DNA of 64,000 nucleotides from Scophthalmus maximus. Lineage: Eukaryota. The notes under the pieces were generated by a model. That model was given only the letters and a program-made list of their open reading frames with translations, searched no databases and had not been told where the DNA came from. A program made the translations under genes and the position numbers. Numbering within the stretch: position 1 is the first letter of the stretch; every line of letters starts with the position of its first letter. Shown in pieces: positions 2,570-50,400 of this stretch. The stretch spans positions 24,047,101 through 24,111,100 of the forward strand of contig NC_061519.1 of the NCBI RefSeq assembly GCF_022379125.1. The letters are read 5' to 3'.

Positions 2570-3071
2570 CTGCACAGCATCCAAAGATCATGAACAAGGA
2601 ATAAGAAAAATATTGTTGAATCAGGTTATATTCTAAGTCCAGCAATACTTGTGTTGAATGAGTCGTAAAGTCATTTGCAAATTGCAATTTCCACTGTAAC
2701 CATCGTGTGGTTGATTTTAGGAGATGAGATATTTTATACATTTTCTAAAACCGCGTTTCGAACAAAAAGACGTTTATCCTTCAAGAATAGTCTACTCTTG
2801 TGATTCACAACGTCATTATAATGAATCAATGTATTGCAGTTAATAGTTTTATTTAATATCAGTTTTAATACCATTGATTTCCACGGAGCTGAGAAGTGGT
2901 GTGTGTCCTGTTAACCAGTAAAATCTAAAATGTGTTTCGAAACACAAAAAACACTTAATGAGGTTCCCAGATGTCCTGCTCTGTTTGTCCCCACTGCATT
3001 AAAAACAAAATTCATATTATAAATGTATTACATATACAACATACAGTTTATGATTATTAGAGGGATGTTAC

Positions 3072-3230
3072 CTTCGGTTTTTATTTCTTCTTTGGGCGTT
3101 GCTTTGCTTTTCTGCCTCCTCTTCTTCGCTGCAGGTTGCACCTCTGTCTTCTCCTCTTCCTCCTCTTCCTCCTTCACTTGAACCGGCTGCCCACTGAGCG
3201 CAGTCGAGTCGCCGGCTTCGTTCGAACTCT
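3072..3230 (-). CDS. parp2: parp2 coding exon 2
   Basis: Acceptor TTTTTCTCCCCCTCTGTCCAG|; translation SSNEAGDSTALSGQPVQVKEEEEEEEKTEVQPAAKKRRQKSKATPKEEIKTE; donor G|GTAACA. Confidence 0.75.
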
Positions 3231-3790
3231 CTGGACAGAGGGGGAGAAAAAGAAGAAAACTTTAAACTCATTCACAGATACAAATATATAATGGGGGAAA
3301 AAAACAGAACAAAAAAACAATATTCACTTTGTATTTTGAATGCAGTTTATGATACTGTTACTATGACTACAACTGCCACTATCACACGAAAAGTTCCAAG
3401 TAGAGAAAATCTAATGAAATAAGAGTTGGGAAAAACTGTGACTCTTTCTTTGAAAGTTGGATTTGTTGACTACAGGCGACAAGAAAACGCCCAACATGAG
3501 TCAGTAGCTGCTTTCAATCGGACTTTCAGTCTGAAGTCCAAACCTTTTTTCTGAATTTTCCGGGGGGCTGTATGTGAGGATGCTCAAGCTTATCCTGCCA
3601 GCCCCTAGTAGAATATCTGAGTGAGCCCATGTGAGACTACAGCAAAAAAAAATCTCTGGAAGATTCACGGCGAGCAAGCGTGCGGGCGCTCTACCCCAGG
3701 CGCCAACCCTCGCCCGGATGTTACGGAAATCTTTCTGCTATTGTGAATGCATGTGACTCGGACAATCTCCAGCTCAGATATTCCATAACA

Positions 3791-3800
3791 ACACAGACAC

Positions 3801-3833
<33 letters not shown>

Positions 3834-3834
3834 G
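3791..3834. repeat. (CA)n microsatellite
   Basis: read directly. Confidence 0.9.
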
Positions 3835-4053
3835 ACCAAGTTTTACTGTCTGAGAGCAGATCTTCCTCTTGTATTTTGTAACAGGATTAATCTGGACCAT
3901 CTTCTTCAGGTCGACTTCGTAGGCCGACCCAGATCCCGGCGTCAGAGTGACCGAGGTTCTTCCCGAAGAGACGGCGGAGTCCAGCAAGGCGCAGTCAGAG
4001 GGCGAGTACGGTTCCCACTGTCCTTCATCCCCTTGCCACTGCCACACTGATCG

Positions 4054-4058
<5 letters not shown>

Positions 4059-4128
<70 letters not shown>
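4059..4128. repeat. (GA)35 microsatellite
   Basis: read directly. Confidence 0.95.
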
Positions 4129-4130
<2 letters not shown>

Positions 4131-4785
4131 GTACTGACATGTTTTCATTTTTGGATATGTTAAGTGCGGCCTGTCTGTAACCTGCGAACTTCCTGACTGA
4201 ATTTATTTTGCTGCCTTTTAGAATTTAAATATGTCTAAGCTTTTTGGAAGTACTAAAATGAAATAAATTGAACTACATCTACTGTTATATGGATCTATTT
4301 TAAGTGACTAATATATGACTATATTAGCTGATATAATTAGATTAATACTAATGCACTAATGTGTGAGCAGCATTTTACTGTTGTAGCAACTTTTAACTAC
4401 TTTCATTTGAAAATTCAGTTTCGTTAATAAGACGTTAGTAAGAGATAAATCTGCGAGGTTGTGAAGTGATGATTTCTCATAGTTTTGCTTACAGTTGTTT
4501 TGTTTTTTTTAATCTTACATTGGAGCAGCTTTATTCAACTTCAATCCTGTTGAAAAGTGCTGTGTGAATAAATCTATTACTGTTCATAATAATAAGTGAA
4601 AAAGAAAGAGAAAAACAAAGCTGCATATATATACATAATGTCCTTTTTTGGTGAAATACTGGACAATTTGACCTCTTTGGGTCTGAAATATCTATTTTTA
4701 TAAAATCATTTGAGACATTAAGGTGGAAAATCTCTTTGGTGGACGTTAGAAAAATGTTAAATTCTGAAAATGTGACCCGCAGACG

Positions 4786-5375: not shown

Positions 5376-5454
5376 CTGTTTTGGACGGAACTTCTTCTTC
5401 ATTTAATGCGTCTGCCCCCTGACTTTTATTGCTCGACGCCCTTGTTCGCCTCAT
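5376..5454 (-). CDS. parp2: parp2 coding exon 1 (start codon 5452-5454)
   Basis: Minus-strand translation MRRTRASSNKSQGADALNEEEVPSKT; Kozak context ACCATGA; donor CAG|GTTCGT. Confidence 0.75.
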
Positions 5455-6011
5455 GGTGGTTTTGTGGGGGGGGAAAGAAGAAATGATAACGAGCTGGTGT
5501 CCGTATAAAACAGGGACCGAAGCCACAACGAGCAACGCGGTAAACTTCAAACTTTATTAACCCACCGCCGCTTCCGCCAAAGATCGTCTAGTCAGCAGAT
5601 GATGCGCTCCGTTTGTTGAAAGACTTAAACACACATATTTAACGTGACATTTAAATCAAAAACATTGTAACTTTAGCTTTAGCTTTCACTCGGTTTAATC
5701 CTTATAATCGTCATGTGAAAAATAAGTAGGTACGGAAAGCCAGTAAGTAAGTATAAGACATCCATCGGAAGGCGTCGACAGTGCACGACAAATACGCACA
5801 GAGTGAGCACTCTTTTGCATGTGCCCTTAAATCGGGAACACAGCTTCGGTTTGTCAAGAGTTCCGCCTCAAACTGCGGTCGGACTTATTTTGTTGAAGGA
5901 CTGGATGGAGGCAAATGTGGCGGTGCTCCGTCCGCGCCCCGTCGCGGTGACTGATCACAGTTTAACATTTAAAGAAATCTTTTTTAAATATACAGTACCG
6001 ACACCGGAGAC
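5455..6011. promoter_or_regulatory. shared bidirectional promoter between divergent parp2 and mettl17 start codons
   Basis: About 557 bp separate ATG(parp2, 5454, minus) from ATG(mettl17, 6012, plus). The interval is CpG-containing and has no long ORF. Confidence 0.6.
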
Positions 6012-6080
6012 ATGGCGTCACGGAGCTACAGTGTCCGGGTCCTCTGTCAGAGGGCCGGGGTCGCGAGGATGACGTTCAGG
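6012..6080 (+). CDS. mettl17: mettl17 exon 1
   Basis: Translation MASRSYSVRVLCQRAGVARMTFR; donor AGG|GTGAGT. Confidence 0.8.
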
Positions 6081-6554
6081 GTGAGTGAAGTTTGTGGATG
6101 TCATTGAACGTAGCATTTGTACCGTGGAGGGGTCACGCAACAGGAACTGAGGCAAATAAACACTTTGCTATGAAACTCAAAATTCTTACTTGTTCAATTA
6201 TCAAATTCCCCATCTGCTAATTCCCAGGCTTTCTTGTAAATATGCATATTCATGTCCTTTTTTTTTCCTGCAACAAAAAAACAAACAAACAATCTAAATG
6301 AATTATTTGTTTGTTGAATAGAATTAGAATCAAAATCAGTTTTATTGCCAGGTAACGGGTAACTGGTTACATACGAGGAACTTTTTGGGGTGTTATCACG
6401 GTGCATGTAGCAGTTAACATATATAAACAGAATTAGAAAAAGAATATAGAATAAAATTAAAATAAAATACACACTATTTTCAATAAATTTACAATAAATA
6501 TCGGGGTCACAGATGGTTAAATGTGAGTGTGGTGGATTACGGTAATATAACGTG

Positions 6555-6795
6555 TTATGTCCATGGGGAAGGAAGGGAGGTGTCACTGGGGGTCCCGGGC
6601 CTTGTTGATGAGGCTTTACAGACATCAACCTCTTGCCGGAGGGGAGCATTTCAAAAAGTTTGTGTCCGGGGTGGGAGGGGTCGGCTATGATCTTTCCTGC
6701 ATGCTTGAGAGTCCTGGAGGCGTGCAGGTCCTGGAGGGACGGCAGGTTGCAGCCAATCACCCTTTCGGCACAGCACATTATACGCTGCAGTCTGC
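6555..6795 (-). mobile_element. fragment of a fish LINE (3' end of the RT ORF) inside mettl17 intron 1
   Basis: Minus-frame translation AERVIGCNLPSLQDLHASRTLKHAGKIIADPSHPGHKLFEMLPSGKRL resembles the widespread teleost LINE ORF2 C-terminus (..SSHPAHGLFSLLPSGRRYRSL..). It is degenerate after this motif. Confidence 0.45.
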
Positions 6796-7090
6796 TTTTG
6801 TCCTTTGCAGCAGCATGTATTATATATAGTAATATGTAATTTATATGGGAATAGGAATATACATCTGGACCTTGTGAATTTCCTGTAAATCCAAAGTTGA
6901 AAATGTAGATGACCTATTTTTTTAAATCACTAATAAAATGTGCTTAGTTCGATGACAGATTTAAAATAAAATACCAAAAGTCTTGGCTCTGAATGCATCA
7001 AATGCTTCTTCTTGTCTGTCCAACTAAGACCAGTTGGTTACCGTGAACTCACCAGAATTAAAGGAGTGTTGTTGTTGTTGTTATCCTCAG

Positions 7091-7232
7091 GGAATGATTG
7101 CAGCTGCACAACCACAGGCCGAGGTCGATTTCCTCAAAGGAGAACCACACAGGAAACACCCCGGTGTCACCAACCTGAAAGCTCTGCGCCTGCCCGAGGA
7201 ACTCCAGACAGCAGCACGGACCATTATCCAGA
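7091..7232 (+). CDS. mettl17: mettl17 exon 2
   Basis: Acceptor ttatcctcag|; translation GMIAAAQPQAEVDFLKGEPHRKHPGVTNLKALRLPEELQTAARTIIQ; donor A|GTAGGT. Confidence 0.85.
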
Positions 7233-7337
7233 GTAGGTTTGTCAGTTGACGATTATGCCAAGTAGTTGTGTGGCTTCGCCGGTCTTGAAATGAACATTGT
7301 AAAAAAACAAACAGCTTTAATCTGTCCACCATCGCAG

Positions 7338-7487
7338 GTGCTCAGGTGGCTCAGCTGACCGACCGCTCTCACAGCCTCACAAACTTCCTGTGGAGCAGGA
7401 AACGAGCGGTTGAGGACGCGACTCTGAGAAAGGCCGCCGTGAGTCTGGAGAGGGAACTATGGAAGAAGGCGATAGAGAAGGGAGGCG
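7338..7487 (+). CDS. mettl17: mettl17 exon 3
   Basis: Translation SAQVAQLTDRSHSLTNFLWSRKRAVEDATLRKAAVSLERELWKKAIEKGG; donor G|GTGAGT. Confidence 0.85.
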
Positions 7488-7594
7488 GTGAGTGCGACGT
7501 ACTGCATAAAACAAAAGTAGAGATGCGTCAACTGTAAAGAGAGTGTGTGATGTGATGCAGCTGGAGAAAGAGTAAACTGGCTTTACATTTACAG

Positions 7595-7682
7595 ATATAG
7601 ACGAGGAGGCACTGGAGGACCGCATCAAGAAAAAAGTGCTATCGGAGCTCCGGAGAACAACTTATCGCTGGACTCACATGAA
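7595..7682 (+). CDS. mettl17: mettl17 exon 4
   Basis: Translation DIDEEALEDRIKKKVLSELRRTTYRWTHM; donor AA|GTGAGT. Confidence 0.85.
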
Positions 7683-7894
7683 GTGAGTTTACCCCCCCCC
7701 CCCCCTTTTGTTATCAAATATTTCTATCTTTTGATTTATGGGAATTTTTTTAATTATTATTGTTATTATGGGTATGTTCATAAATGCTCTACATTAATAA
7801 AATCTACTTATTTCAAAGTGGAGAAATAGCTTGTCCCAACTCACGCACACAAATATACAGGTCTGATACGTGTAAGTTTTAAAACTTTAAACCT

Positions 7895-8098
7895 TTAAAG
7901 GGGCAGTAATCGTTCTAAAGCAAAACACGCATTGTAAAAAAATCTACGGATATTTCCTCGCGGTCCACTAGATGTCGGTTCTGTATGTCTCCCATAACGG
8001 GAGGTCGCAGGTTTGCGGCACCCGACCAGAGCACGAAAAATCACAGCGACAATGAGGGGAAACAAGCTTTCTCCATAATCGCTTACTGGCCCCTTTAA
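7895..8098. mobile_element. MITE family A copy 1: TTAA-flanked terminal inverted repeats AAAGGGGCAGT ... ACTGGCCCCTTTAA
   Basis: ttaaaggggcagtaatcg ... cttactggcccctttaa, in mettl17 intron 4. The same termini occur at 35592 and 41276. Confidence 0.6.
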
Positions 8099-8225
8099 TA
8101 GCCGCAAGGTACATTTGCAACTGATGTTTTAGTTCACATTGATTGTTGAGTTTAGGAACTTTGGTCCTGTTTCGTGTCTGTGGTGTAGACAAGTTTAGAC
8201 GGGGAACTGTCTGTCTGTGTTTCAG

Positions 8226-8307
8226 GTACGATGAGGAGTTCGGCGTCGTGTACATGGCGGCTCGCCTGGCCGGCGGCTACGCAGCAATGAGGAGAGCTCT
8301 CAATGAG
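8226..8307 (+). CDS. mettl17: mettl17 exon 5
   Basis: Translation KYDEEFGVVYMAARLAGGYAAMRRALNE; human has [21 protein letters not shown]. Confidence 0.9.
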
Positions 8308-8442
8308 GTATGAGCAAGTGTTTAATAAAAATGTTTTACACCTAGAAAAATGCCCAAAAAATGTTCTGATTTCTGAGGATTACGACGACTTAATTTTTTT
8401 TATGGGTGAAATAAGTTTTTCATTTTTTCCCTGTCATTCTAG

Positions 8443-8516
8443 ATCAAGAAGAGGGATCCCTCCTTTGCCCCACAGTCTCTTCTGGATTTCGGTTCAGGGC
8501 TGGGAACAGTTGTCTG
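8443..8516 (+). CDS. mettl17: mettl17 exon 6 (SAM-binding motif I)
   Basis: Translation IKKRDPSFAPQSLLDFGSGLGTVV; human has [24 protein letters not shown]. Confidence 0.9.
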
Positions 8517-8649
8517 GTTGGTTTACAGCACCAATGCAACACAAAGATAATTTTTGATGTAATTTAAAAGACTGTACATTCACTCTCTATCTTTCTCTCT
8601 CATTGTCTCTCTCTCTGTCTCTCTCCCTTTCTCTCTCTCTCTCCGGCAG

Positions 8650-8744
8650 GGCGTCACACTCGTACTGGGCCGACTCTTTGAAGGAGATGGTTTGTGTCGA
8701 CAGCTCGGGGCCGATGAACACTCTGGCAGAACGACTTCTCAAAG
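8650..8744 (+). CDS. mettl17: mettl17 exon 7
   Basis: Translation WASHSYWADSLKEMVCVDSSGPMNTLAERLLK; human has [31 protein letters not shown]. Confidence 0.9.
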
Positions 8745-8873
8745 GTTCATGTGCACAAAAACACGATATTTAATTTAGATAGGTCGCAGTTTTCTTAAGT
8801 TTTCTTTTCTTTTTTTCTTTTGTCAAATAGCTCATCAGACAATCTAAGTATGTTTTTGTGTTTGGCTGCGCAG

Positions 8874-8944
8874 GCGCCGATGAAAAGGCTCAACCTCACA
8901 TCAAACAAGTCTATTTCAGACAGTTCCTCCCGGTCTCTCCTAAG
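8874..8944 (+). CDS. mettl17: mettl17 exon 8
   Basis: Translation [24 protein letters not shown]; donor AAG|GTAAGA. Confidence 0.9.
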
Positions 8945-9099
8945 GTAAGACCCTCCTCTATTTGTAAATTCAGCTGCAGAGAAGCACATTCTGTTTTCAG
9001 ATGTCGGGGAATAACAGTTTCTTCAAATATATATTTATAATCCATCCTTTCAATTTTGAGTTTCAAAAAAAAGATTAAAACTCGGATTATTGTCGTATA

Positions 9100-9480
9100 T
9101 GCAAGAACCTTTCTTTCATTCTTTATTTATTTTATTTACTCTCTATATTTCTTTCTTTTACTTACTTTCTTTCTTTTTCTCTTCTTCTTACTTTCATTCT
9201 TTCTATCTTTCTTTCTTTCTTTCTTTCTATCTTTCTTCCTACGTTTCTGTCTTTTTCTGACTCACATTCTTTCTTCCTATCCTCCTATCTTTCTTTTTTC
9301 TAGCTTTCTTTCTTCCTATCTTTCTATCTTTTTCTGACTTACAATCTTTTGTTCTATCTTCCTTCCTATCTTTCTATCTTTTTCTTTCTTAGTTTCTTTC
9401 TATCCTTTCCTTACTTTCTTTCTTTCTTTCTTTATTTTTCATACTTTCTTTTTCTTACTTTCTTTCTTTCTTTCTTTTTT
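9100..9480. repeat. (CTTT)n / TTTC-rich low-complexity tract in mettl17 intron 8
   Basis: About 380 bp of ctttctttctttc units; it generates the spurious ORFs 9056..9337 and 9349..9546. Confidence 0.9.
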
Positions 9481-9590
9481 TGTCTTGAAACATCAATAGT
9501 TCGTCTACAAACACAATCACCCAGATGCATCTTAAGTAATATTTAGCGGAAGGATGAGGAGACGTGATACTGCTGCGTTTCTACTTTCAG

Positions 9591-9698
9591 GTGCAGTTTG
9601 ACTTGGTGGCCGCAGCGTTTACCCTGTCGGAGATTTCAGGTGTGAAGGATCGAGAAGAAGCTGTGTTCACTCTGTGGAGAAAGACCGGCTCATATCTG
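9591..9698 (+). CDS. mettl17: mettl17 exon 9
   Basis: Translation [36 protein letters not shown]; human has [36 protein letters not shown]. Confidence 0.9.
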
Positions 9699-9885
9699 GT
9701 TGGTGGAAATAATGATCAAACTGACTTCTGACAACATCATTTTTCTTATGATGATCCATTGGATTGTATGTTGGGGTCCTGTAATCATTGCACCATATCT
9801 GAATATATATGCACAGTATATATATATATACTCTATTGAAGATAAATTTATCTTATTTAATATGTAATCCTTTTTTTTCTTATAG

Positions 9886-9954
9886 GTGCTGGTGGAAAAT
9901 GGGACCAAAGAGGGACATCAGCTTCTTATGGAGGCCAGAGACACGTTATTAATG
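9886..9954 (+). CDS. mettl17: mettl17 exon 10
   Basis: Translation [23 protein letters not shown]; human has [23 protein letters not shown]. Confidence 0.9.
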
Positions 9955-10088
9955 GTTTGTAAAGTAGATGAGAAAGAACTTTTTAGAATCCTCATGAGGG
10001 ATTTCTTTTGTAAATGTTGACGTGTAGATGATTTGACACAGATAAGAATGTGGAAGCAGACTGACAACTTACAGCTCTCCCTCTCCAG

Positions 10089-10139
10089 AAACAAGAGACG
10101 ACGGTCCACGACTCCAGACCAGCGTCGGTGTTCGCTCCA
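10089..10139 (+). CDS. mettl17: mettl17 exon 11
   Basis: Translation KQETTVHDSRPASVFAP; donor CCA|GTACGT. Confidence 0.85.
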
Positions 10140-10244
10140 GTACGTTTTTTGAAAATCCCCGCTGGTTATTTTTTTTTAAACCAGATGTCAGTCAGTCAGT
10201 GTCACAGCTTTAACTGGAGCTTCTTTTCCCATTGTTTTTCTTAG

Positions 10245-10337
10245 TGTCCCCATGAACTGACGTGTCCCAAACTGGCCCAAAAGATGGTCGTCCCCTGCAA
10301 CTTCCAGCAGCTGTACCACCCTCTGCCTCTGCCCGGG
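10245..10337 (+). CDS. mettl17: mettl17 exon 12
   Basis: Translation CPHELTCPKLAQKMVVPCNFQQLYHPLPLPG; human has [28 protein letters not shown]. Confidence 0.9.
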
Positions 10338-10559
10338 GTGAGACCCAACTCTGGATCACGTGTCTCGCTACAGTCACGCATGACTTTTGTTACAAAAGAA
10401 AGCATGAAAGTTCTCGAGGGAAAATAAATGATTGCCAAAATAATTCCTCACTCAAAGGCCCTCTCTGTAATATCAGTTACAGAGAGAAGGCAGAAAATAT
10501 AAACTAATACCATCTGAATTTCTACTTTTAAACTGACAAAATTAATAAATGTCTTTCTC

Positions 10560-10560
<1 letters not shown>

Positions 10561-10592
<32 letters not shown>
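10561..10592. repeat. poly-C homopolymer (32 nt) that forms the polypyrimidine tract of mettl17 intron 12
   Basis: c(32) immediately followed by ag|CACAATGAG. Confidence 0.9.
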
Positions 10593-10594
10593 AG

Positions 10595-10794
10595 CACAAT
10601 GAGTGTCGGACGGAGAAGTTCAGCTACCTGATTGTGACTCGCGGTGAACCGGCAGAGCCTGCGCCAGACGGCACGGTGGACTGGGCCCGGCTGGTCGCAC
10701 CGGTGCTGCGCAGAGCCAGACACGTCCACTGTCGGACGTGCAGCTCCGACGGGCAACTCCACCACATGGTGGTGACGGCTCGAAAACACAGCAG
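10595..10794 (+). CDS. mettl17: mettl17 exon 13; the acceptor AG is preceded by a 32-nt poly-C run
   Basis: Translation HNECRTEKFSYLIVTRGEPAEPAPDGTVDWARLVAPVLRRARHVHCRTCSSDGQLHHMVVTARKHS; donor AG|GTGAAG. Confidence 0.9.
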
Positions 10795-11688
10795 GTGAAG
10801 ACGCCGCATCACACTGTGGTACTGTCACACTCGTCAGCAGCAGCGAGGTTCAAGAACTCCGTATGACAATATGAAGGGTCGTCAATTTAAAGTTTTTGGG
10901 TTAAAACAAGGGTATTTTAATTTTTTCTTTCCAGAGCAGAAGATTTTCTTCTTTTCACACATAAAAAAAACTGTCTCCTGAATGTATTGAAAATGTATTT
11001 GGTTACGTGAATTGTTCAATCGTTTCATAGTTGTACTGGTAACAGCCTATATCCAACAGTTCTTCTTTTTTTTTTCAAAAACATGGGGAGCAGCTGAATT
11101 TGTTCTAATCATTAGGGCCTGTCACAATAATTACGTTATCGACTTATCGTACGATAAATGGATTTGAACTCAATCATTTTCATTGACCTCAATAACAGCC
11201 ATCGTGTCTACATGCTTGTTTGCTGACTTAAGAAGGAATGTTAACAACAGTCCAGCAAAGTCTTGCTGCTTCTGTGTTCTCATCTCGCCTCGTTTTACAA
11301 TCTAAAAAAATGTCAGAAAATATGGATTTCTTAGCATTTGTCTAAAGGCACCACGTCTTCAAATTGCTTGTTTTGCCTGAGGCCTAAACGCAAGGTTAAA
11401 CTTTGGATAACATATTTCTCTCAGCAGCGACACACATCGTGTAGGACCTGCATAGGCAGCAACCAAGCTCACATGATTCAGTATCAAAAAAATGGTCTTA
11501 AAATGACGATAATATTGTGTATCGCAATTATTTCTGTGACAATATATCGTGCGACAAAAGGCAGTTATCATGACAGGCCTACTCACCATTCACTTCTGTT
11601 TCAAAATGTATTCTCTTGAGATATTGAAGTGAGGTAAAAAAAAAAAATGTTCGCTACTGACGACCGCCTTTCATTTTTCTTTCATCAG

Positions 11689-11785
11689 AGACGTGTATCG
11701 CTGCGCTCGGAGCAGCGAATGGGGCGATCGCCTGCCGATCGTCCCGACAGCGGAGGAAGACGAGCACAGTGATTCCGAGGGATGA
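11689..11785 (+). CDS. mettl17: mettl17 exon 14 (stop TGA 11783-11785)
   Basis: Translation RDVYRCARSSEWGDRLPIVPTAEEDEHSDSEG*; human has [21 protein letters not shown]. Confidence 0.9.
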
Positions 11786-11950
11786 TGAGTCAACCAGGAT
11801 GAGGCATGTCCTTTTCGTTAGACGTCTGCAAATAATGGAATGCACCCTAAAACTGACATGAATAAGACTGCTGTCCAAGGAATCGTCAGCTGTTTTTCCT
11901 TATGGGAACTCACTGAACAGCTACTGTGTGCTTATCAGGATTGCATCAAT

Positions 11951-11956
11951 AAAAAA
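11951..11956 (+). promoter_or_regulatory. AATAAA polyadenylation signal, likely mettl17 3' end
   Basis: caATAAAaaaaaac lies about 166 nt downstream of the mettl17 stop codon. Confidence 0.5.
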
Positions 11957-13008
11957 AAACATTTGTTCTGTCATGCTGTACTTTACCATCTTATTGTTCA
12001 CCACCTTCAACAAACCAGGGTCACTTTTTTTTGTAAAGCACATGCTGTAATTTTGGACATTAAAGCGGCAACAGACAGCGATGGCGCCCCTAGTGGTTTC
12101 CTAGAGGTACTTTTTCCTCAGAGCTCCTAAGGAAGTTGTCATCAGATAATGCGAGGAGAAAGCATCGTGGTTAACTCAACGCCAGCAGCCGGGCTACTGT
12201 CCAAAGCAGCAATTAACCATAAAAATCTAAATTTGAAAAAAAAAAACCTTTGTAAGAATAAGAAAAACAAACTACATATGGTTTAATTCGTGGAGCTTCT
12301 CTCCACAGAGTGAATGTCTGTCTGAGGTTCAATCGTTTTATCTTTTTCTTTCACTCTCCATCTGTTTTTTGTTCCTCCATCAACAGGATTAATTTTTTTT
12401 CTTGCAAGGTTACACAATGACAAGCTTAAGCCAAACAGTTGTCAATTTTGGCTTTAATGTGAAGGGTAGGCTGTCCCAAAATTGAAAAAGAGGCCATGTA
12501 GGTATGTTTCATGTGTCATCTTCAGAGCTCAATATCATCCCTTTACTGAAAGAATCCCAAAATCCAAAAGATCCACCGATTTACATTTTCACTTTTTCTT
12601 GCTCAAATGAAGTCACTAAAGTGTGTTCATGTGGTTTGTCGACAAACTGGAGAAGCAAAAGATTGAAAGCCTGAAGACGTCCTGCTCCGTCAGACAAATT
12701 TCAACAGAAAAAAAATCTGATCCCAGTGCAGGATGATATCACATCTGACTTTAGAGGCGTCTACTGTGTCTCAGGTGCTGGGATCCATTTTCAATACGAA
12801 GTCTCCCAAGAAAAGAAAACCTGCAGTTTGTAAAACCTGATTCAAACGCACCTTTCAAGCAGCTTATGAATCTGATGAATGTGAGCTTTACAGAAATATG
12901 TCACCTCAGTTACAGTTGTTCTTTATATTCTCTCCATATAAGACACAGTAAATATTAAGGCATAATTACACAGATAATTTAAGCCACCACACATTCTTCC
13001 AAAATCTC

Positions 13009-13439
13009 TTAACTCCCAACAATCTCCTTCAGGGCTGAGGTCAAGTCCGGGAACTTGTACTGAAATCCGGCCTCTAAAGTCCTCTGTGGTCTGACCTTCT
13101 GTCCCTGGGTGAGGACCACCGCCCTCTCGGAGCCCATCAGGCCGTTCATGACGAAGCCTGGCACGGGAAAGATGGTGGGCCGCCGCAGAAGTCGGCCGAG
13201 CTCCTTAGTGAACTCGTAGTTGGTGTTCAGCGCGGGTGCGACTCCGTTCAACACTTGCTGTGAAGATGAGGGAGCGGCGGTGGGCGGCGGCTCCAGGGCG
13301 TGGGCGACAATTCCTGCCAGGTCTGAGACGTGGATCCAGGGGAACGGCTGCCTCCCTGAGCCCAGGGTGCCCCCGAGGCCGAGCCAGAAGGGCAGCAGCA
13401 TCTGCTTCATGGCGCCACCGTCACGACCCAGCACGGCCC
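13009..13439 (-). CDS. sdr39u1: sdr39u1 coding exon 6 (stop TAA at 13009-13011)
   Basis: Translation GAVLGRDGGAMKQMLLPFWLGLGGTLGSGRQPFPWIHVSDLAGIVAHALE...LKEIVGS*. Confidence 0.9.
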
Positions 13440-13548
13440 CTGGTGGAGAGAGGGGGGAAGAACAGGGGGAACGTCATCTTCATGCTTTTGGTCAAGAAAG
13501 TTCTTGACGGATCCACATGGTCTGTGATGAAATATGAAGGTTTATTAC

Positions 13549-13927: not shown

Positions 13928-14299
13928 CTGAAACCACAGACGGGTTGAGACGTTAAAGTGACTGACACAGTAACTCTGAACGGCACCGTTAATGGACCAC
14001 AACACTTAGTTAAATTCCAACCAAGAGAGTTAAACTATTTGTGTTAGATCCTGAGAAATCCACAGACATGATTCACATTAGATGTTTAGAGCTGAAAAGA
14101 TGCTTTTTATTTGTTGGTTTCTGCTTCTCAGATGTGAGGAATCTATTTCTTCATCATGATACAGTGTGATAATAAATATATATACTTGGATTTTGAACTG
14201 TTAGTCAGATAAATGGCAACTTTACATTGGTCAACTTGGGATGTGCGAAATTATTTAAAAATTATTTGAAGTTGTAGCACAAGTTAATTTGCTGCTCAC

Positions 14300-14382
14300 C
14301 ATCGCAGTGGGTTCATGAGATTTTCTCCAGCCAAGTTGACGGCGCCCTCACATGGTGGGAGGCCATGAGACTCCAACTCACC
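14300..14382 (-). CDS. sdr39u1: sdr39u1 coding exon 3
   Basis: Translation GELESHGLPPCEGAVNLAGENLMNPLRW; human has DELAASGLPSCDAAVNLAGENILNPLRRW. Confidence 0.85.
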
Positions 14383-14584
14383 CTACAAGGAGCACAGATG
14401 AAGAAAAGAACAGTGAATATCTGCAATGTGGTGGAAAGCAGCCATTAATAGGTAGGTCAGTTAAAAAAAAACATGTGCATCTCAGTGTCATGGCAACCAG
14501 TGCGGCTGCAGGAATGAAGGAGATGCAGCCCCACCTCCTTTCCCTGCTCTTTTACTATTATTGTACATTAAACAAAGATCATAC

Positions 14585-14691
14585 CCATGTTATTTTCCCT
14601 GGACCGGGCTGGCGAGATATCACTGTGACCTCGTGACCTTTGTCTCTGAGCAGACGAGTGAGCTCGCGGCCCACAAAGCCAGATCCCCCTC
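14585..14691 (-). CDS. sdr39u1: sdr39u1 coding exon 2
   Basis: Acceptor TCTTTCATCGTAG|; translation GGSGFVGRELTRLLRDKGHEVTVISRQPGPGKITW; donor TGG|GTATGA. Confidence 0.85.
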
Positions 14692-15615
14692 CTACGATGA
14701 AAGACAACACAAAGAAGAGAGATGTACAGAGAATCCATCAGTTATCGGCTACAAATTAATCTAGAAAAGAGAGAAATGGTGACTCTGTTTGCCCTGATGT
14801 TACAAATATTAATAGATATATTATCAAAGGGGCATTGAACCAGGAGCAACTGGACTTGGTTGTAAGTTCTTGAAGACATTTCACCTCTCAACCAAGAGGC
14901 TTCTACCGTTCTAACTAAGTTGTGGTGAAACACAGGTATGAGTTTGTTACTTAATAGGTAAGGTGTAAGTATTAGTAGTATTAATATTAGTAGTAGTATT
15001 AGTAGCTCCTGATTCAACATCCTCAGATAACTAATACCTGGAAAATGGCACTATTTTTGTAAATATACATTTTAAAACTTTTTCAAAAACACTTCTTTTG
15101 CACATTCTCTGAACAGAACTTTTGGAACTTATTATGTCACTTGGTTTAGAAATTGCTGCTACTGACTTTGTCATTGTATTTTAGTTTTTTATTTCTGTTT
15201 TTATTTATTGTTCTGATAAATGCAAGGGTAGGAAACCATACATAATTAAATTGAACTAAGTATAATGAAAATAAAGAAAATTCTATTCTATTCTAGATGA
15301 CTGAGAATTTCCACAGACATAAGTAAATATAAAACATACCTTATAAGTTACCATCAGGTACAGTAAGATAAAAACTAATACAGCCCTATAAAAAAAATGT
15401 CCTGTAATGCAGTAATAAATCCTATCTTCATGAAGGTCAGCTTAGCTGTAACTGTTCTGATTAAACTTAATGATGATTGAGGAAATCGTTTGTGGAACTG
15501 TTTGATATTATTCATAGAAGTGTTTCTGTTATTTAGCCAAGCCACGTTTCCGTTAAACGGAGCTGACAAAAAGTTTAAATAAAGTTATTTTGACATTGAA
15601 AGCACGGGTTGCAGC

Positions 15616-15625
15616 GCGCATGCGC
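15616..15625. promoter_or_regulatory. perfect NRF1 palindrome GCGCATGCGC in sdr39u1 intron 1, close to its promoter
   Basis: cagcGCGCATGCGCact read directly; it lies about 300 bp downstream of the sdr39u1 start codon on the minus strand. Confidence 0.5.
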
Positions 15626-15922
15626 ACTACACTACGCTTACAAAACAGCACTCTTGTGCGTTACTTTAGCAAACGTAGCTTTGTGCAGGCTAACAATAAA
15701 ACCGCGCAGTTTCTCTAGGTGTTGATCGCGACACGAAGCCTACTTGTAGGTTATTCTGTCAGTTTCAAGACGAACATAATGCAAATGTAACTTACAGGCG
15801 CATGACTCAAATGTCTGTCTTTATACCTGCAATGCTAACAGCAGCTAACAACTAGCTGCTAGTGACATGACCTTTACGAACAAAACCAAAAACATGAATA
15901 TATGACAATAAAACATACGTAC

Positions 15923-15938
15923 CTATTAAGACTCTCAT
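15923..15938 (-). CDS. sdr39u1: sdr39u1 coding exon 1 (16 nt: ATGAGAGTCTTAATAG)
   Basis: Translation MRVLI plus G. Donor G|GTACGT; its phase matches the exon 2 acceptor. Human begins MRVLVGGGTGF. Confidence 0.6.
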
Positions 15939-16789
15939 AGTCACCGAATTGGCGATTTAATAACTGACCGTTGATCTACACCGTGTCTGTCTGACTCCAC
16001 CGCTCTGTATTATAAGGCAGTGAGATGGTTTCAGTCTTTCTTTCTTTTTTGGACCAATGGGGGTTCCGTACTTGTACCAGCAGTTACGTCATTTTGTAGT
16101 TTTTTAAATGAGCTCTGGGAATAGATGGTTTGGTAAAAAGAAACAGGTGCTGTTAAATCACGGGTTTATTAAAAGCACAGCAGCCGCTTATCTAAGTAGT
16201 TCTATAAAAAAAAATCATGGTGCAGACATGAAATAATACATTTTGCACGTCTTTATTAATGTGTGTCTCTCTGTAGTCTGTCTAGTGTTGTGTGTCTTTG
16301 AAAGTATGTTTCTTTCTTTTCTTTGTGTATTTTTTCCTCTTTTTGTGTCCCTCTGTGCTTCTTCTGCCTTTCCTCCGAGCCATTTTGTGTCAAGTCAGGA
16401 TGACGAATTTGAAAATAGGGTACAACAACGACAACAACAACAAAAACAACTACAACAACACAAAAGACTGGGTCGTTGTTTAATGAATCTTTTTCTTTCA
16501 ATCTCATAATATTTGTTTTGTCAGATTCCCCCCCCCCCCCCACATTATAATAACATTTAATTGATTATCTATAGATGTTAATTAGAAAGAACAGTGTCAC
16601 TCTTGCTGCTGAAGAATTTCCTGATATGGATTTTACAAATATATATATATATATATATATTTATTTATTTATTTTTTAAAATAATCAATAAATATTTATA
16701 CTGTCGACAGAAATGAAAGTCCACTGATGCATTACATATTCGTCACACAGGTGTTATGTTATGTTATGTTATGTTGCGTATCCGCTCTT

Positions 16790-17110
16790 TTATTGTGCAG
16801 CACCAGACCCGGAAGCGCTCAGACAAACACGTGGTTTTGATAAAGAGATAAATTGCGCCGCGGCGTCATTAGCGACCTCTTTCTTCCTGGTCGCGCTGAT
16901 GGAGGTCGTGTGTCGGCGGGCGGAGGCGACCGAACCTCCCCGACGTGTCAGGTTTGTCTCACAGCATCTCGCCGTTCACGTCGCAAGTTAGTGTTTCAGT
17001 ATCTGTGGCCGTTGGTTAGTTTTGTTTTGTTTGTTTGCGGTTGTTTTGGCCGCACGGTGTTTCCGTTGTTCGCCTCAGACCTCGTGGTTGATCACAGCTG
17101 GAGAAGTTAC
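16790..17110 (+). promoter_or_regulatory. CpG-island promoter with ETS (CCGGAAG, 16809-16815) and E-box (CACGTG, 16828-16833) sites
   Basis: Dense CpG (gcgccgcggcg, ggcgggcggaggcgaccg). No convincing coding frame. GT-AG exons of a noncoding or 5'UTR type follow downstream on the plus strand. Confidence 0.5.
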
Positions 17111-18210
17111 AGGCGGAATCCCAGTGGAGGGAAAGTTGGTAGACTTAATAACGACTAATATTATTGTCCTGATGAAGCCTCAGGTGGTTTAGGACTTTTT
17201 ATTATCAATATTATTTTTATTATAGCTTTAATTTGTGGAACATCACTTTGAACATTCACTCTGATGTTGTTCTTAAGTGCGATTTGGCTCTTGTGAAATA
17301 TGACATAATTTCACCTGCTTTTTGGATTTTATGTAATTGTTTAGCTGAAACTGAGAAGTTGAGATTGCTTTTGTTTTTTAATTTCCTGGACCTGATAACT
17401 CTGACCACGTGACAAAGGGACAATGGCTACATCCTGTTAGTTTTTTGGTTTTTCTTCCCCCCACATGGTTACAAGCCAAACAGGAAACCACTGGTTTAAT
17501 CTTTTAACTTAACATTATATTGTCTCTGGGAAATTTATTGACTGTGGCTGCAATGGAAATTAAGTGAAAGTCTTTTTCCTCTGGAGTAGTCTCATTATGC
17601 AGAATATCCCATTTTAAAATTAATTCATTGGTCATTAATCGGAAAATAATCAACTGTTTTGATAAGAGACTACAATTTGAGTCATTCTCACAAACCCCAA
17701 TGAAATACTGTTTTAGTTACTCGATCATGAAACTCTCCTGTGTTTCTGTATAAATTAGGTTTTATTTATAGAAAATTCCACATTTGTTGGGTTTTTGACT
17801 GTTGGTCAGACATGGTGGAGTGGATTTTTTTTAAGTTGATTAATTTATGAAAATAATCTGCATAACAAATGATGACCTAGTGTGCTTGTGTTTAGATTTT
17901 GCTATTTGAGTCACATTATTGATAAATCAATGTGTGCGACATGTTGCCTTTTCCCTTGGGGATATATATTGACCTGATACAATATCTGTATCTCTGTTAA
18001 ACCTTTGGACGCTGCCACGCTTCTTTGTTATCGCGACGCCACTTTTTATTCCGTCAAACCTTCATGATGATTTGCATGTGAGTCCGTGTTTCACCTGAAC
18101 CTCATGATTATTCTTTCACTGCGCTGATGGGTTTGACGACGCAGACGACGGTCGTGTGCTTTAACGTGTAGTAAGTTGAGACACTAACCTGGTCAATGTT
18201 TGCTTATGAT

Positions 18211-18249
18211 TTCAGAGCCGGGGGCCTGGACGAGATCTGAACTGATGAG
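18211..18249 (+). ncRNA. candidate spliced noncoding or 5'UTR exon
   Basis: Acceptor tgatttcag|AGCCGGGGGCC...GATGAG|gtaagt donor. All three frames contain stops. Confidence 0.35.
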
Positions 18250-18342
18250 ATGAGGTAAGTTCACTGAAACATGAAAGTAGCACATTATCACTTAAAACAC
18301 ACTTTATGCTTATTATTTATTCACCTCGTTTTCTTCTACAGG

Positions 18343-18390
18343 TTATGGGACACGGGACAAACTGAGAACTCTGCTGCGTTGCTTTAGAAG
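18343..18390 (+). ncRNA. candidate spliced noncoding or 5'UTR exon
   Basis: Acceptor tcttctacag|GTTATGGGACACGGG...TTTAGAAG|gtgaaa donor. No ORF can run from exon 18211-18249 through this one. Confidence 0.35.
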
Positions 18391-25033: not shown

Positions 25034-28000
25034 AATGTGATGAGGGGTTAAGACCGACTGACCTCTTCTTCTAGGACGGGGTGTCGTTCCTTCTCCGCGG
25101 TGTGTGTCAGATTCAAATATCCCCCTGGTGTTGCTCTACCGCTCCGTCCGTCTCCCACGGCGTCTCTTCTTTTTTCCCCCCTCGCATCTGTGATCTGGGC
25201 CCATAGTGCACTGATTCATGTCCTGCCCTCGCAGGCTGCAACACGCCGAGCGAGGGAGGGAGGGAGGGGGCAGCGGAGGCGCGTCCTCTCGCTCTATAGA
25301 CGAGCATCCTGAAGAAGAAGAAAAGTGACTCTGCGCAGTGGCATATGCATAATCAATATGTTAAGTACATTGAACACGGTGTACACATGATGGCTTTTTA
25401 TTTTTGTTTAAACAAATACGAATTCTTCCTCATCCTAATTTTTCGTGTCCAGAAGCACTTTTCACTCTGTGAGTCAGTCGTTGTTGCATCAGAATCACAA
25501 ATACTTTCATTAAATCACGGGGGGGGGGGGGGTTGTGTAACCTGAGGGGAAGGGATGAATGATTCAGAGGGTTTACACAAGCTCTGTCTGGGCTGTGTCC
25601 TAAGATGCAGGGTGCAAGCACACAGGGAAAAAAAAGAGAAAGAACAAAAGTCACGTTCACTAGTTGACACAAGCCTCTGACTCTGACAGGAATGTGAGAT
25701 GAGGTAGAAGCCCCGAAGCTGCCGCTGGCGCTCAGCGGCCGAGGGCAGGAGCAGCTTTTCGAAACACCTTCGTCCTTCCTGGGGAAGGTCTGCAAGAACG
25801 TGAAGGACCCTGGCCCACGCCTCGTTCACAGCGACGTCATGTCTCGGCACCAACGCAGCGTCACACTTACACACGTACACACGCCGGAGATTGACAGGGA
25901 TCTGTGTCCGACGCTGATCTGTGAAGCTGCAGCCAGAAAATCCAGTGGAGTGTTCTCCAAACTCTTTGTAATGGTCTGACTATACACAAAGTTTCCTTCA
26001 AACAGGGGTGTGTACGGGGCCACAGGCTTTTATGCTAACGCCCCTGGTTGCTATAGAAACATGTAAAAAATAAATAAATAAAGAAAAGTCGTTGCCTTGT
26101 TTGCTGGAGGCCGCTGGAGCTCCACGCCGGGCGGGAAGCACGAGATGAGAACGAAAAATCGTATTGTTTTTTTAGTTTTTTTCTTCCATATCTTATAGAT
26201 TTTAATTTAGATGCGAATGTTTCTCAGATGTGTCCCCTCTGAGCTGCTGAATGATTTCATGAACTCTTTTCTGAAACGTATTTTCGGTGTGTTATGAGAT
26301 GGCGGGCCATTATTCGAAGCACAAGTGTACTTTTGTCAATTCTTTTTTTTTTTTACTATTCACAGGGCATTTGTCAGTATCTCCATAACTTCAACAACTC
26401 ACGTGAAGGCGGAAGGGCTTTCCCGCCGGTGCTCCGTGTGAGAGAGAATATGAACAAAGTCACGTGACTGGGGGCAGAGGTCATCGCTGACGTTATGGTG
26501 GATGAAATGATTGAACACAAGATTGGATGATATGGCAATTTGGTTAGATTTAACTTTACTAATGATGGGCTCATCGTATTGATGCAGCCAACACAGCAAA
26601 AAAAGAAAAAGTTTATTTAGAGGCAGCACAGCCAAACGGGCGTCCTTAGATGTGACCCCTGTGAAAGGGTGTGTGGAGCCACCGAGGTCCTCCATCACGT
26701 CCACAGGGCCCACGAGTTCCATCCTTACATCAGCGTCTGGAGGTCAGAGACACAATCGTTTAATTGTGGTCTGTTTGGTTTCATGTGTTTTGGGGCTTTT
26801 TTGTGAGATTAACAATATTCATATATTTTTTGTCTTCGAGTGCGCAAAAGCAGGCTGATTGAATCCTTTTCTTTGGACCAAACTTTCTGATTGAACGTGG
26901 GTTTAACAGTCCTGTCACGGGCCAAGGATGAGGGATTTTTGTTGTTTCAATGTCAGAGCATTCAATTTATTCATCGCTATTGGTACATTACGAGAGGTTC
27001 AAGTAATATATGACCAAAAAAAAGTGCTTCCCAAAAATATCGCTTACCCCTCCAGTAATTATAAGCAGTTGAATAAGGGGTGGGAATTAATAAGCTTTGG
27101 CTTCCTCCTGCTCCTTTTCGGACATATATGATTTATTTAGCCATAAATATTGTTTATGACACTTTATAAACATTTAGTTTGTTTTTTTTGTATGCAGTGT
27201 CACACTTGCTCTTTTATTTGAATTTGTTCAAAAGAAAGTAGGAAATGTGACTCAAGGTTCATAAGGTTTTTCTTATGTTGATGCTTTCGTGTGTAAAATT
27301 GTCTGGACACTGATCAATATATCTTAAATCGTTGATGCGATGAGAGCTGAACACTAAATCGTGGTTCCAGTGGTTGGTGTTGCTGTCATTGTTTTGATTT
27401 GGCTCAACTGCTATTTTTGTTCAGCAATGTCCTGAATGAAGTTGGGTCACAATATTTTTCGATTTTGCAGCCACATGATGAATCTACCAGACTTCTCGGG
27501 CTTTGGACAGTTTGTCCCCAAGGTTAAAACAAAACAGTGAGAAGCAGTGTTCAGTTTTTCCACACCCCACATTACTGTATCGTTCTGCCTTTTATTTAAT
27601 TAAATTTGTGGCTGTTTAAAAAAAAAATATATATATATATATATATATTCCATTTCTTACAATATAAATCTCACTGCATTTAACCTTTTATTTTAATTTT
27701 ATTAGACTTTAGCCTTTCAAATTGTATATATTTCATCCGTCGTTAGGCACTTTTTGTGTGCAACATTTGTTGTAGTTCCTTGCTTGTCCAGTAGGTGTCA
27801 TGAAGAGAACGTGGGAAAGCACAAATGGGGGAAGTGGCGAACAGTCACAGGTGTGTTGCATACTGGAGTAACACGGTCACGTGGAGAAGACCGGACATTT
27901 GGCCATTGTTTAAATATATATAAGTCGTTTAAGTTATACAAGTTTACAACACCAGTGTAAGCCTCAGCTCTGAAATAATTCCCCTGCCCATAATGTGTCA

Positions 28001-28227
28001 AATGTTGTTTACTGTCTCTTTTGCTGTCGTTTGATAAAGAAACTTTGGGCGGAACCATGTCTCCTGCTATTTATTGTAACGAACCCGAATGACTTTGGGG
28101 TTGTTAGTACAGGTCTGAGGTAAGTGTTACAACCCCCCATGTCTTATCTTGGATCCTCTACAGAAGAGTATTAGGGCCAAGCATGAGGGGGAAGATTTAT
28201 TTTTTTAATGAGGGGGGGGGGGGGGGG

Positions 28228-44600: not shown

Positions 44601-44601
<1 letters not shown>

Positions 44602-47435: not shown

Positions 47436-50400
47436 GCGAGCCGATGACCAGCAGCAATTGAAATCCTCTCTATGCACTCGGTGTTCGGATGCGTCGCTCC
47501 GGTCGCGCGTGGCGCCGACAGGGGAACTTGGATCACCAGGACGCCGTTGTAATTATGACCACATGCCGCTGTTACAGTTTTATAAAGGGAAACTAATGTT
47601 TTTTGACATGTTTTCATTATAAATTATACAAGAAAGTGTTTTGGATTTATGTGTTTTTTTATTGTGACGAAACAAACAAGGCGCTCAGACAAGGTGAATC
47701 TAGTGACTGAGGGGAAAAAGGCTTTAGATGGTTAAATAAGATATGATAAAAGACACAGTATATTTTCTTTGTTTAAAGATGTGCAATTATTTCTGTATCC
47801 CCTGACAGTGTCTGTATTTTAAGATCCGTTCTGCAGTGCCCATTTCTCTTGGGATCCCCTGGCAGTGATTTCTGAATATCTAAATGTTCGTTCAGAAAGA
47901 TTTCGGCGACCAATATCTTACAGAAACTTGATCTCATGTCCGTAGATTGTTCTGTGGCTCGCGTAAAAGTTCAAGTGTTGAGACAAAAAGGATAGTTGTC
48001 CCCCGTGAGGGGACGACGTGACCAGGCTGCGACTGTTAACGCTGTTTGACAGGTTTGTATGAGCAATAGTTTGTTAGATCCTCTCGAAGGGAAGCAGAGT
48101 GGGTATCGTCCTGAAGAACACCGCCACCTGCGGGGACGCGGGACCGGGGCGCCTTCGACTGTCCTAAATCAGCAGCTGTTTGAGATATTCGTCTTTCTGC
48201 TGTAAAACTTCACAGGTCCGATGTTCTTCTGTTTGTGCTTTCTCCAAGAAAGGAGTGTGGCTCCAAGACATATCCACAAAAAAAGTCTTTCATTATTCCA
48301 AAAAACAAGGACGGCAATGAAAACGCACCCAACCTAACCTAAAAGGACGTTTACGTAGCATTCTGTTTTCTCGACAGGTTTATGGGTCTATATGCTTCGC
48401 CACCACCATAAATGGGAATGTTGGGAGGTTGAGACCAAAACAGACTTGAAGATTAAAGGGGGAGATGTCGTTGGTGAGGACGAGCTTTAAAAGATGAGCT
48501 TAGCGGTGGGAATCTGAGGCCGTAACTCCTCCATGACATTGACATTTTCCACCTCCAGCTCCTACTTCTCTCTCTGGCTGCGGTTCGGGGAAGTTCGCGA
48601 GACACATGGCGAGTTCAGTTGGGAGCCTCCGTGACCGCCCCGCGAGGCTTCGGCGCCGCGAGTCACGCTCAGCCATTCATACGGCGCTTCTCCATCATGC
48701 AGCGACCCTCAAGGCGCAGACTGAAGGACCAACCACCGATCTTTAGATAAGTGAGCGACAGCCGCTCGTGGCAAAAGGAAAGGAACGGGAAGCTCCTTTG
48801 CAAACTAATGACCAAACTTCACGAACAGCGAAGGGGGGGGGGGGGGTGTTTGCTTGTGCCTGACAACAGCACAAAGGAACACCACATCTAAAACCCTTGG
48901 GCATTAATATAGTGTCTTGCACTAGATTTAGGGAATTTGCTCCCATTGGGCCACAAGGGCCTTGGTGTCGTGCGGGGCGGCGATGGAAGGTGACGGACCA
49001 GGTTTGACGTTCCACTTCATCCCCAAGGTGTTGCACTGAAGTTCAGGGTTCGGGTTTGTCTGACGGGAGACGGACGTCGCCGCAGAGTTAGAAGCAAAGC
49101 CAGAATCAAAGTTCGCACATACTCTTGGCCATTTTAATGTAAGTAAAGTAAAGTGTAGTTTGGATGATTCTCATATACTAGTTATTAATGCTTGAAAGTA
49201 GTTGATTCTTTGATGGGCTCTCTTGGACTGTCTTATTGCAGCTCTGAGAAACACTCAACTTTGTCATGTTACCATCTGTAAGCATAGTTTCCCAGCCTAT
49301 GAATAGACCAGCAAGGTCACGCTGACTTCAAACAAGGAAATGACGTACTAAATATTAAATCAAGAGATTTACTGCGCCGACAAATCCTGTTTTGAACGCT
49401 TTTTTTTTTTTTTTCCCCCGTACCTAGGTTTGACCACCTTTATCCTGCCGGATGACTCCCACTGGTCCCTGACGTCGTCATTTCTCGCTTTTCGCATGGA
49501 GGAACACATTGTTCCCCTCCATCCACATATTGAAACATGAAATCACTCCCACGTTCACCAGGGGGAGGTAGAAGCTCAAACATAAGACAGAGAGACCTAG
49601 GGGAGGGTCGGTCTGACTGACACATCCAGGTTCAGACAACAGCTGCTCGCATTCGGTATAGTTAAAGACCATTATGTCAAAACCGAGCCACAGTCACCGG
49701 AAAGCCCGAGTCCCAGGCGAGCAGACTAACTATAGGATGGCGGAGGCGTGTGGAAGCAGGGCTGCTGGTGCAGAACGTGAACAGACTCAAACTGACACGG
49801 CTCGTGTTCAGAGGAAGCTGCATCCGTTTCCCAGCGCCTGAGAAGCTCACAAATGGGTTTGTCTTAGACTGTGCAAAAGAGAGTCACGCAAACCAGGAGC
49901 GAGCATGTGCTTTCATCAGGGGGTCACGTACGCCTGAGGCCGGGCGCCGTGTCTAGTCGTCAAAACCCCTGCGCCGCGCACATGACCCCTCCCCAGTCAA
50001 ACCACACCACGTTTCTTCACACTGATCAGCACTTCCCACCGTGAATGGACCGAACTATATTGTCCGAGGTTCCTCTTTCCGACATGCAGACACAGGGATG
50101 ATCGTTTGCTGGTGCTACGGTCGTCCCCTCGAGTGACGCCGTGCCCAGATTGGTCACCGTGTTCCCACTTGAATTTTTTAAAAAAATGACCCAATTCCTC
50201 GTGGGAACTGTTCAGACGAGTCTTCTCAGGCACCAGGCGAGGTCATCTCATCTATGGCGAGACGAAAACAATCATCGAGCAGCTCACGTCTCTGTGGAGG
50301 TGTCGTGGACGCGGGGAGGTGTCGACATTACTCTAAACTAAATCCACTGCAGAGACCGGGGACGGGCCGAACACTGTGAACCCGTTGACCTGTGGAGCGA

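Follow-up and report, generated by a model that had tools for sequence, protein, structure and literature searches.

The analysed window, 64 kb of the turbot genome, contains a parp2-like gene (minus strand), mettl17 (plus strand), sdr39u1 (minus strand) and a gene for a rhodopsin-type GPCR (minus strand), in an order that is the same at five other percomorph loci. It also holds an NFAT-like gene (39192-46503, plus strand) with a CPSIQIT motif of calcineurin-docking type and a weak match to Rel-homology dimerisation/IPT, and the neighbourhood of parp2, mettl17, sdr39u1, GPCR and NFAT-like genes recalls the human 14q11-q12 gene set. A MARVEL-domain gene on the minus strand consists of two exons, 60109-59980 (exon 1) and 55997-53444 (exon 2), which encode 293 aa with a PF01284 domain.

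The 14-exon, GT-AG model of mettl17 (Table 1) yields a product that matches annotated turbot METTL17 (AWP03688.1, XP_035489742.1) at 100% identity along its whole length, and on this basis the gene, the exon number and the acceptor that a preliminary description had named for the feature studied here, namely mettl17 exon 13, are right. Human METTL17 (PDB 8csp chain 7) was matched by phmmer with E=1.3e-134, and its residues C333, C339, C347 and C404 all aligned to cysteines. Four cysteines hold a [4Fe-4S] cluster in METTL17 (PMC11046306), and the fourth human ligand, C404, aligns with the RTC cysteine of RHVHCRTC in exon 13, the translation of which reads HNECRTEKF...RHVHCRTCSSDG...KHS(R). The peptide of exons 12 and 13 also matched Pfam Rsm22 (PF09243) with E=2.8e-15, and with both the Rsm22 domain and the four cysteine ligands present, the protein belongs to the METTL17/Rsm22 family. 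Exon 13 must be included because it holds the cysteine aligned with C404, and since it is 200 nt long, skipping it would shift the reading frame. Intron 12, which separates it from exon 12, has the GT and AG ends of a U2-type intron and keeps the frame across the junction.

As had been claimed, 32 consecutive C residues (10561-10592) directly abut the AG of mettl17 exon 13 at 10593-10594, and the exon begins at 10595. That AG is the first one downstream of an AG at 10492, with none between 10494 and 10592, which gives an AG-free zone of ~100 nt. The remark in the preliminary description on i-motif or G4 structures is a generic one. A G-rich pairing partner for the C run was considered and rejected, as the run is unpaired in both the MFE and the centroid predicted RNA folds; a search of the window against Rfam returned zero matches. 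Elsewhere in intron 12, a perfect 10-bp inverted repeat (ctctctgtaa / ttacagagag, 10461-10486) with a 6-nt loop is predicted to fold into a strong hairpin. Other mettl17 introns hold features of their own: a degenerate (CTTT)n microsatellite of ~95 units with 66% matches fills much of intron 8 (9109-9481), and a 239-codon open frame without a Pfam match lies on the minus strand of intron 1 (6197-6913), where the motif RIMCCAERVIGCNLPSL resembles what is presumably a common fish retroelement remnant.

Table 1. Positions in the window of mettl17, of the elements around the intron 12 acceptor, and of the other long C and G tracts
Feature	Position	Strand	Remarks
mettl17 coding region	6012..11785	+	14 exons, every intron GT-AG, 462 aa
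Exon 12	10245..10337	+	CPHELTCPKLAQKMVVPC...LPLPG; three Cys aligned with human C333, C339, C347
Intron 12	10338..10594	+	257 nt, GT-AG, gtgaga...ccag
Candidate branch point CTGAC	10533..10537	+	A at 10536, 58 nt from intron end; consensus match
Alternative branch candidates	TTAAT (A at 10545), CTAAT (A at 10507)	+	consensus match
U/C-mixed stretch (tctttctct)	10552..10560	+	just 5' of C run; candidate direct U2AF65 site, putative role
Perfect (C)32 homopolymer	10561..10592	+	final 32 nt of mettl17 intron 12 ahead of AG
AG acceptor, intron 12	10593..10594	+	junction used in 9 transcript contigs
Exon 13	10595..10794	+	200 nt, phase 0 start; HNECRTEKF...RHVHCRTC...
C14	7692..7705	+	mettl17 intron 4, starts 10 nt after exon 4 donor (gtgagttta-C14)
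C14	16528..16541	+	~0.6 kb upstream of sdr39u1
C23	21828..21850	+	intron 1 of minus-strand rhodopsin-type GPCR gene; G23 in that pre-mRNA
G14	25519..25532	+	no gene identified at position
G16	28212..28227	+	no gene identified at position
C23	33363..33385	+	GC-rich, repeat-rich stretch upstream of NFAT-like gene
G14	48833..48846	+	downstream of NFAT-like coding exons
C29	54626..54654	+	3'UTR of minus-strand MARVEL-domain gene; G run in mRNA

Acceptor use in transcripts and in other fish

Nine contigs assembled from nine turbot sequencing runs (SRR12588625 to SRR12588649) each carry a complete 462-codon mettl17 open reading frame. One of them (L006) aligned to the window in 14 blocks that coincide with the exons of the model, 12 at 100% and 2 at 98-99% identity, which indicates that the contigs represent spliced mRNA. 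The junction between exons 12 and 13, CTCTGCCTCTGCCCGGG|CACAATGAGTGTCGGACGG, is exact in all nine, and the corresponding peptide ...LPLPG|HNECR... is common to these contigs and to all four turbot protein models. That the intron must be spliced, as the preliminary description had argued, is thus borne out by the exon 13 cysteine aligned with C404 and by the junction in every transcript; a different acceptor was also looked for in the RNA-seq data, and the nine contigs and four protein models all use the AG at 10593-94. Neither skipping of exon 13 nor use of a cryptic acceptor was seen in the nine assembled contigs, a type of data in which low-level skipping, intron retention or other mis-splicing is not quantifiable. 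Separately, the four turbot METTL17 models (P0109, P0229, P0230, P0231) diverge at the N-terminus, at exon 3/4 (GGDID vs GG--D), at exon 7/8 and at the C-terminus, and never at exon 12/13.

Orthologous loci were compared in six percomorphs, including Haplochromis burtoni, Larimichthys crocea, Pleuronectes platessa, Xiphias gladius and Solea senegalensis. The same acceptor codon, CAG|CACAA, starts exon 13 in all six, and each has a short T-rich tract at the acceptor (T14 in swordfish, T9 in a cichlid) without a C run. A comparison with related species had been proposed in the preliminary description, and its outcome is a conserved acceptor with a poly-C tract in turbot alone among the fish compared. 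Turbot and swordfish can be aligned over the upstream sequence of intron 12, the C32 run is collinear on either flank with the orthologous swordfish intron, and the swordfish block TCCGTATCAACC-T14-CTT is replaced in turbot by TCTTTCTCT-C32. Across ~112 kb of orthologous loci from the six fish, not one C or G run of at least 14 nt was found, and only four of 9-12 nt; in contrast, the first 22 kb of the turbot window alone hold four runs of at least 14 nt. The C14 tract of intron 4 (7692) is likewise absent from the orthologous site in the fish compared there (L002, Larimichthys, Pleuronectes and swordfish).

Given the T9 to T14 tracts of the relatives, a systematic conversion of poly-T into poly-C was considered, and it was rejected because swordfish has no T run at the intron 4 site and because the C identity of the tracts is confirmed by independent data. 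The swordfish tract (L021, ~14505-14526) is itself a T14 homopolymer, so that this acceptor has a mononucleotide run in more than one lineage, with the usual base in the swordfish case. In the Haplochromis burtoni locus (L001), the 3' half of mettl17 and sdr39u1 are present twice, ~8.5 kb apart and with identical acceptor flanks (1-4294 / 5441-8655 and 10001-12869 / 14011-18513), which reflects either tandem duplication of recent date or a duplication in the assembly.

Long C and G tracts in the window and in independent turbot data

The C14 word occurs in the window as 62 overlapping matches at 9 loci, compared to none in 100 dinucleotide-preserving shuffles. Lengths of C/G runs decay geometrically (ratio ~0.3) up to 8 nt, after which a second population appears, with runs of 14, 14, 14, 14, 16, 23, 23, 29 and 32 nt, and the histogram is bimodal with no run at 11-13 nt. 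Similar runs had been listed in the preliminary description, and all of these exist, although the coordinates of four were off by 1-4 nt (the true positions being 7692-7705, 33363-33385, 28212-28227 and 25519-25532) and two further tracts, the C14 at 16528-16541 and the G14 at 48833-48846, had been missed. A shared flanking element, as expected of a transposon origin, was dropped as an explanation, with no common sequence apparent by eye in the flanks of the nine tracts. The window is also generally rich in di- and tetranucleotide repeats, e.g. (AG)34 at 4061-4128. Upstream of the NFAT-like gene, at ~0.6 kb from the C23 at 33363, there is a purine-rich tandem repeat of GGAGG/GAGAG type (32345-32767) that has a 66/135-nt period, with six copies counted at 66 nt.

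These tracts raise the question of whether the C32 run exists at all, or is instead an error of sequencing or assembly (through gap filling, faulty polishing or a spurious homopolymer) in an intron that really ends in a short T/C tract. We addressed it at four tract loci using data generated independently of the window: an older, independently built turbot assembly (GCA_003186165.1, locus L005), which is 98-99.5% identical to the window, for the tracts at 10561, 7692 and 16528, and transcript contigs for the one at 54626. At the C32 locus, the older assembly has a 52-N gap in place of window positions 10500-10587 and then resumes at the same place with cccccag|CACAATG. The C14 at 7692 appears there as C22 and the C14 at 16528 as C7. 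For the C29 at 54626, three short-read transcript contigs read (GA)n-G10-A-GG and two others end inside G15 and G12. Runs of A or T of 8-10 nt are mostly concordant between the two turbot assemblies.

Since the tracts are seen in independent data with differing lengths, the loci are real and the lengths given for them are unreliable. The existence of the tracts and the identity of their base are confirmed by other technologies and individuals, and the possibility of an artefact class, which had been offered as an alternative to a mutational bias, fails in this respect; it keeps its force for the lengths, which disagree across data sets. An outright artefact at C32 could draw on these conflicting lengths, on their quantised appearance (14 nt four times, 23 nt twice, none at 11-13) and on the gap in the older assembly at the very site. 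However, the sequence on resumption of that assembly, the C22 and C7 at two sister loci, the transcript contigs that show or break inside the G run at a fourth and the collinearity of both C32 flanks with the swordfish intron make such an artefact very improbable, and together imply that only the length can be artefactual. In particular, "32" is not a trustworthy length, as at C32 itself the sole independent genomic assembly is a gap and the length comes from one assembly, and true hypervariability and homopolymer error cannot be separated here. The odd quantisation of four tracts at exactly 14 nt is a further warning on lengths, and an independent contig with the exact C32 allele, sought through the minus-strand open reading frame at 10448-10828, is not on record. 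Unrelated to these tracts, a 698-N gap at 16844-17541 of L005 (window 12711-13465) deletes the last exon of sdr39u1, which accounts for the truncated 162-aa sdr39u1 annotation and for the missing turbot SDR39U1 in the protein search.

Recognition of an acceptor behind a C homopolymer

We consider that the C32 run is, in all likelihood, a genuine mononucleotide microsatellite specific to the turbot lineage, which expanded within the polypyrimidine tract of intron 12 and is tolerated by splicing. Under this explanation, expansion by slippage inside the tract would have replaced the T-rich sequence that the relatives keep, and the ancestral acceptor is still the one used in every available transcript. 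For the branch site, we infer from the consensus match at 10533, the best one in the AG-free zone, that U2 snRNP pairs at CUGAC with the A at 10536. Between this A and the AG, the sequence is 82% pyrimidine and AG-free, and the two elements of a U2-type 3' splice site, a branch site (by consensus match) and an AG-free pyrimidine stretch, are therefore both present. With this stretch pyrimidine-rich and AG-free, the first AG past the branch site (10593-94) would be the one chosen. Were the C run ~5 nt long, CTGAC would lie 31 nt from the intron end; as it stands, the run would act as a single-stranded pyrimidine spacer that lengthened the branch-to-AG distance from ~31 nt, a typical value, to ~58 nt.

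A mammalian C-rich tract became stronger on C-to-U changes, and U2AF65 has a preference for U (PMC4797308), from which a pure C tract is expected to be weak. The absence of skipping and of cryptic acceptor use is thus accommodated, and not predicted, by a tolerated microsatellite. Recognition of the 3' splice site would probably proceed through U2AF65 bound to the UCUUUCUCU stretch and the first C residues. PCBP1/2 bind C-rich tracts, raise exon inclusion and co-precipitate U2AF65 and SF3B2 (PMC4797308), and PCBP1/2 and hnRNP K on the C run may bridge to U2AF65/U2, as in mammalian C-rich tracts. Either a U2AF site provided by the UCUUUCUCU stretch or help from PCBP-type proteins on the run could thus support use of the acceptor.

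A stricter version holds that the C run is not a functional polypyrimidine tract at all, and that U2AF sits on the upstream UCUUUCUCU stretch only, the run being an inert linker through which the second catalytic step scans. The 9-nt U/C stretch directly 5' of the run, the consensus branch site 15 nt further upstream and the preference of U2AF65 for U (PMC4797308) are all consistent with it. On the other hand, U2AF35 normally touches the AG as the bound partner of U2AF65, an arrangement that sits awkwardly with 32 nt in between. We regard this version as unlikely, albeit worth keeping in mind, and note that it is a sub-variant of the spacer explanation from which the present evidence does not separate it.

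Another alternative is that the C tract has been selected for a regulatory function, acting through PCBP-dependent inclusion of exon 13 or through a template-strand G-quadruplex as a transcription brake. In the former case, functional METTL17 and mitochondrial translation would depend on poly(C)-binding proteins. There are precedents in mammalian cassette exons that gain PCBP dependence from C-rich tracts (PMC4797308, PMC5829739), and exon 13 holds an essential Fe-S ligand (PMC11046306). However, exon 13 is constitutive in the nine transcripts and in all models, the tract is missing in every other fish examined, at least 9 similar tracts are scattered over introns, a UTR and stretches without an identified gene on both strands, and the lengths of the sister tracts vary freely. 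A constitutive exon next to lineage-specific, scattered and length-variable tracts fits a mutational process and not site-specific selection, and a selected regulatory role for C32 is accordingly unlikely, to a degree that we would put only a little above that of the outright artefact. Most likely, the C32 tract is neutral or slightly deleterious, and is tolerated without being selected.

Related tracts and wider meaning

Among known systems, the nearest to the mettl17 acceptor in composition are the mammalian C-rich tracts bound by alphaCP/PCBP1/2 (PMC4797308), including that of CDK2 exon 5 (PMC5829739). They share with it a C-dominated tract immediately 5' of a used acceptor: the final 32 nt of the mettl17 tract lack a U-rich U2AF65 motif, and a C-rich motif stands beside the acceptor. 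Unlike the mammalian examples, in which short interrupted C-rich motifs accompany alternative cassette exons, the turbot tract is a perfect 32-nt homopolymer ahead of a constitutive exon. Exon 13 is not a cassette exon, being present in nine transcripts and four protein models and having a length at which skipping shifts the frame.

In humans, homopolymer microsatellites inside such tracts are poly-T, as in CFTR intron 8 (T5/7/9), MRE11 (T11) and HSP110 (T17). Contraction of poly-T tracts within polypyrimidine tracts leads to exon skipping in mismatch-repair-deficient tumours (PMC11304650, PMC9957390). These microsatellites and the turbot run are alike in that a slippage-prone homopolymer forms the tract of a functional acceptor, and by length, the turbot tracts qualify as mononucleotide microsatellites (9 C14 loci vs 0 in 100 shuffles). 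They differ in that the base is C and not T, that the turbot run is two to three times longer, and that a length-dependent effect on splicing is documented for poly-T only.

As a population, the tracts of the turbot window resemble the poly-G/poly-C tracts of Caenorhabditis (Zhao et al. 2007, PMC2211496), which are perfect homopolymers 18-32 nt long, far more frequent than chance predicts, and whose maintenance depends on the DOG-1/FANCJ helicase. The latter are mostly intronic or near genes, lie on either strand and are not conserved in position between species, and the two mettl17 tracts are similarly missing at orthologous sites. C. elegans has 396 tracts of at least 18 nt per 100 Mb, and human 200 per 3.3 Gb (PMC2211496). 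The turbot, by contrast, is a vertebrate, and its 4 tracts of at least 18 nt in 64 kb (~62 per Mb) correspond to ~15x the C. elegans density, as estimated from one window.

With respect to branch-site position, introns with distant branch points and extended AG-exclusion zones were reportedly described by Gooding et al. in 2006. Intron 12 is reminiscent of them in its AG-free zone of ~100 nt and in having its candidate branch point at 49-58 nt from the acceptor, although the distance in turbot is only moderately long and is made by a homopolymer, and not by a mixed U/C tract. The C32 run is, then, an extreme variant that joins C-rich tracts and homopolymer microsatellites, and not a new kind of element.

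The acceptor nevertheless offers a natural demonstration that a vertebrate spliceosome uses an acceptor behind a pure, long C homopolymer. If the length of the run truly varies among fish, it would further provide an allelic series for tract composition, branch-to-AG distance and PCBP-assisted recruitment of U2AF. C32 alone is a curiosity, and more novelty lies in the unusual density of tracts; in our literature search on turbot poly-C/G tracts, no description was found. It is conceivable, if still somewhat doubtful, that the turbot genome as a whole is exceptionally rich in long, perfect and hypervariable poly-G/poly-C tracts, at tens per Mb, a genome-wide property that the one 64-kb window on which the density rests cannot establish. 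If so, the turbot density would stand about an order of magnitude above that of C. elegans and about a thousand times above the human figure (PMC2211496), with tracts in introns, in UTRs and directly against splice sites. Replication and repair in this vertebrate would then be unusually permissive of G/C homopolymers, or biased with respect to them, and the natural alleles of its tracts would form a series for testing to what extent pure C can stand in for a U-rich polypyrimidine tract.

From a practical standpoint, short-read assemblies and transcript contigs break at these G/C tracts and represent them with inconsistent lengths, so that turbot genomics incurs gaps and indel errors from them. 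A high density of such tracts in a vertebrate, if confirmed genome-wide, would also bear on G-quadruplex stability and on mutational bias, and the long G run in the mRNA of the MARVEL-domain gene could possibly form an RNA G-quadruplex.
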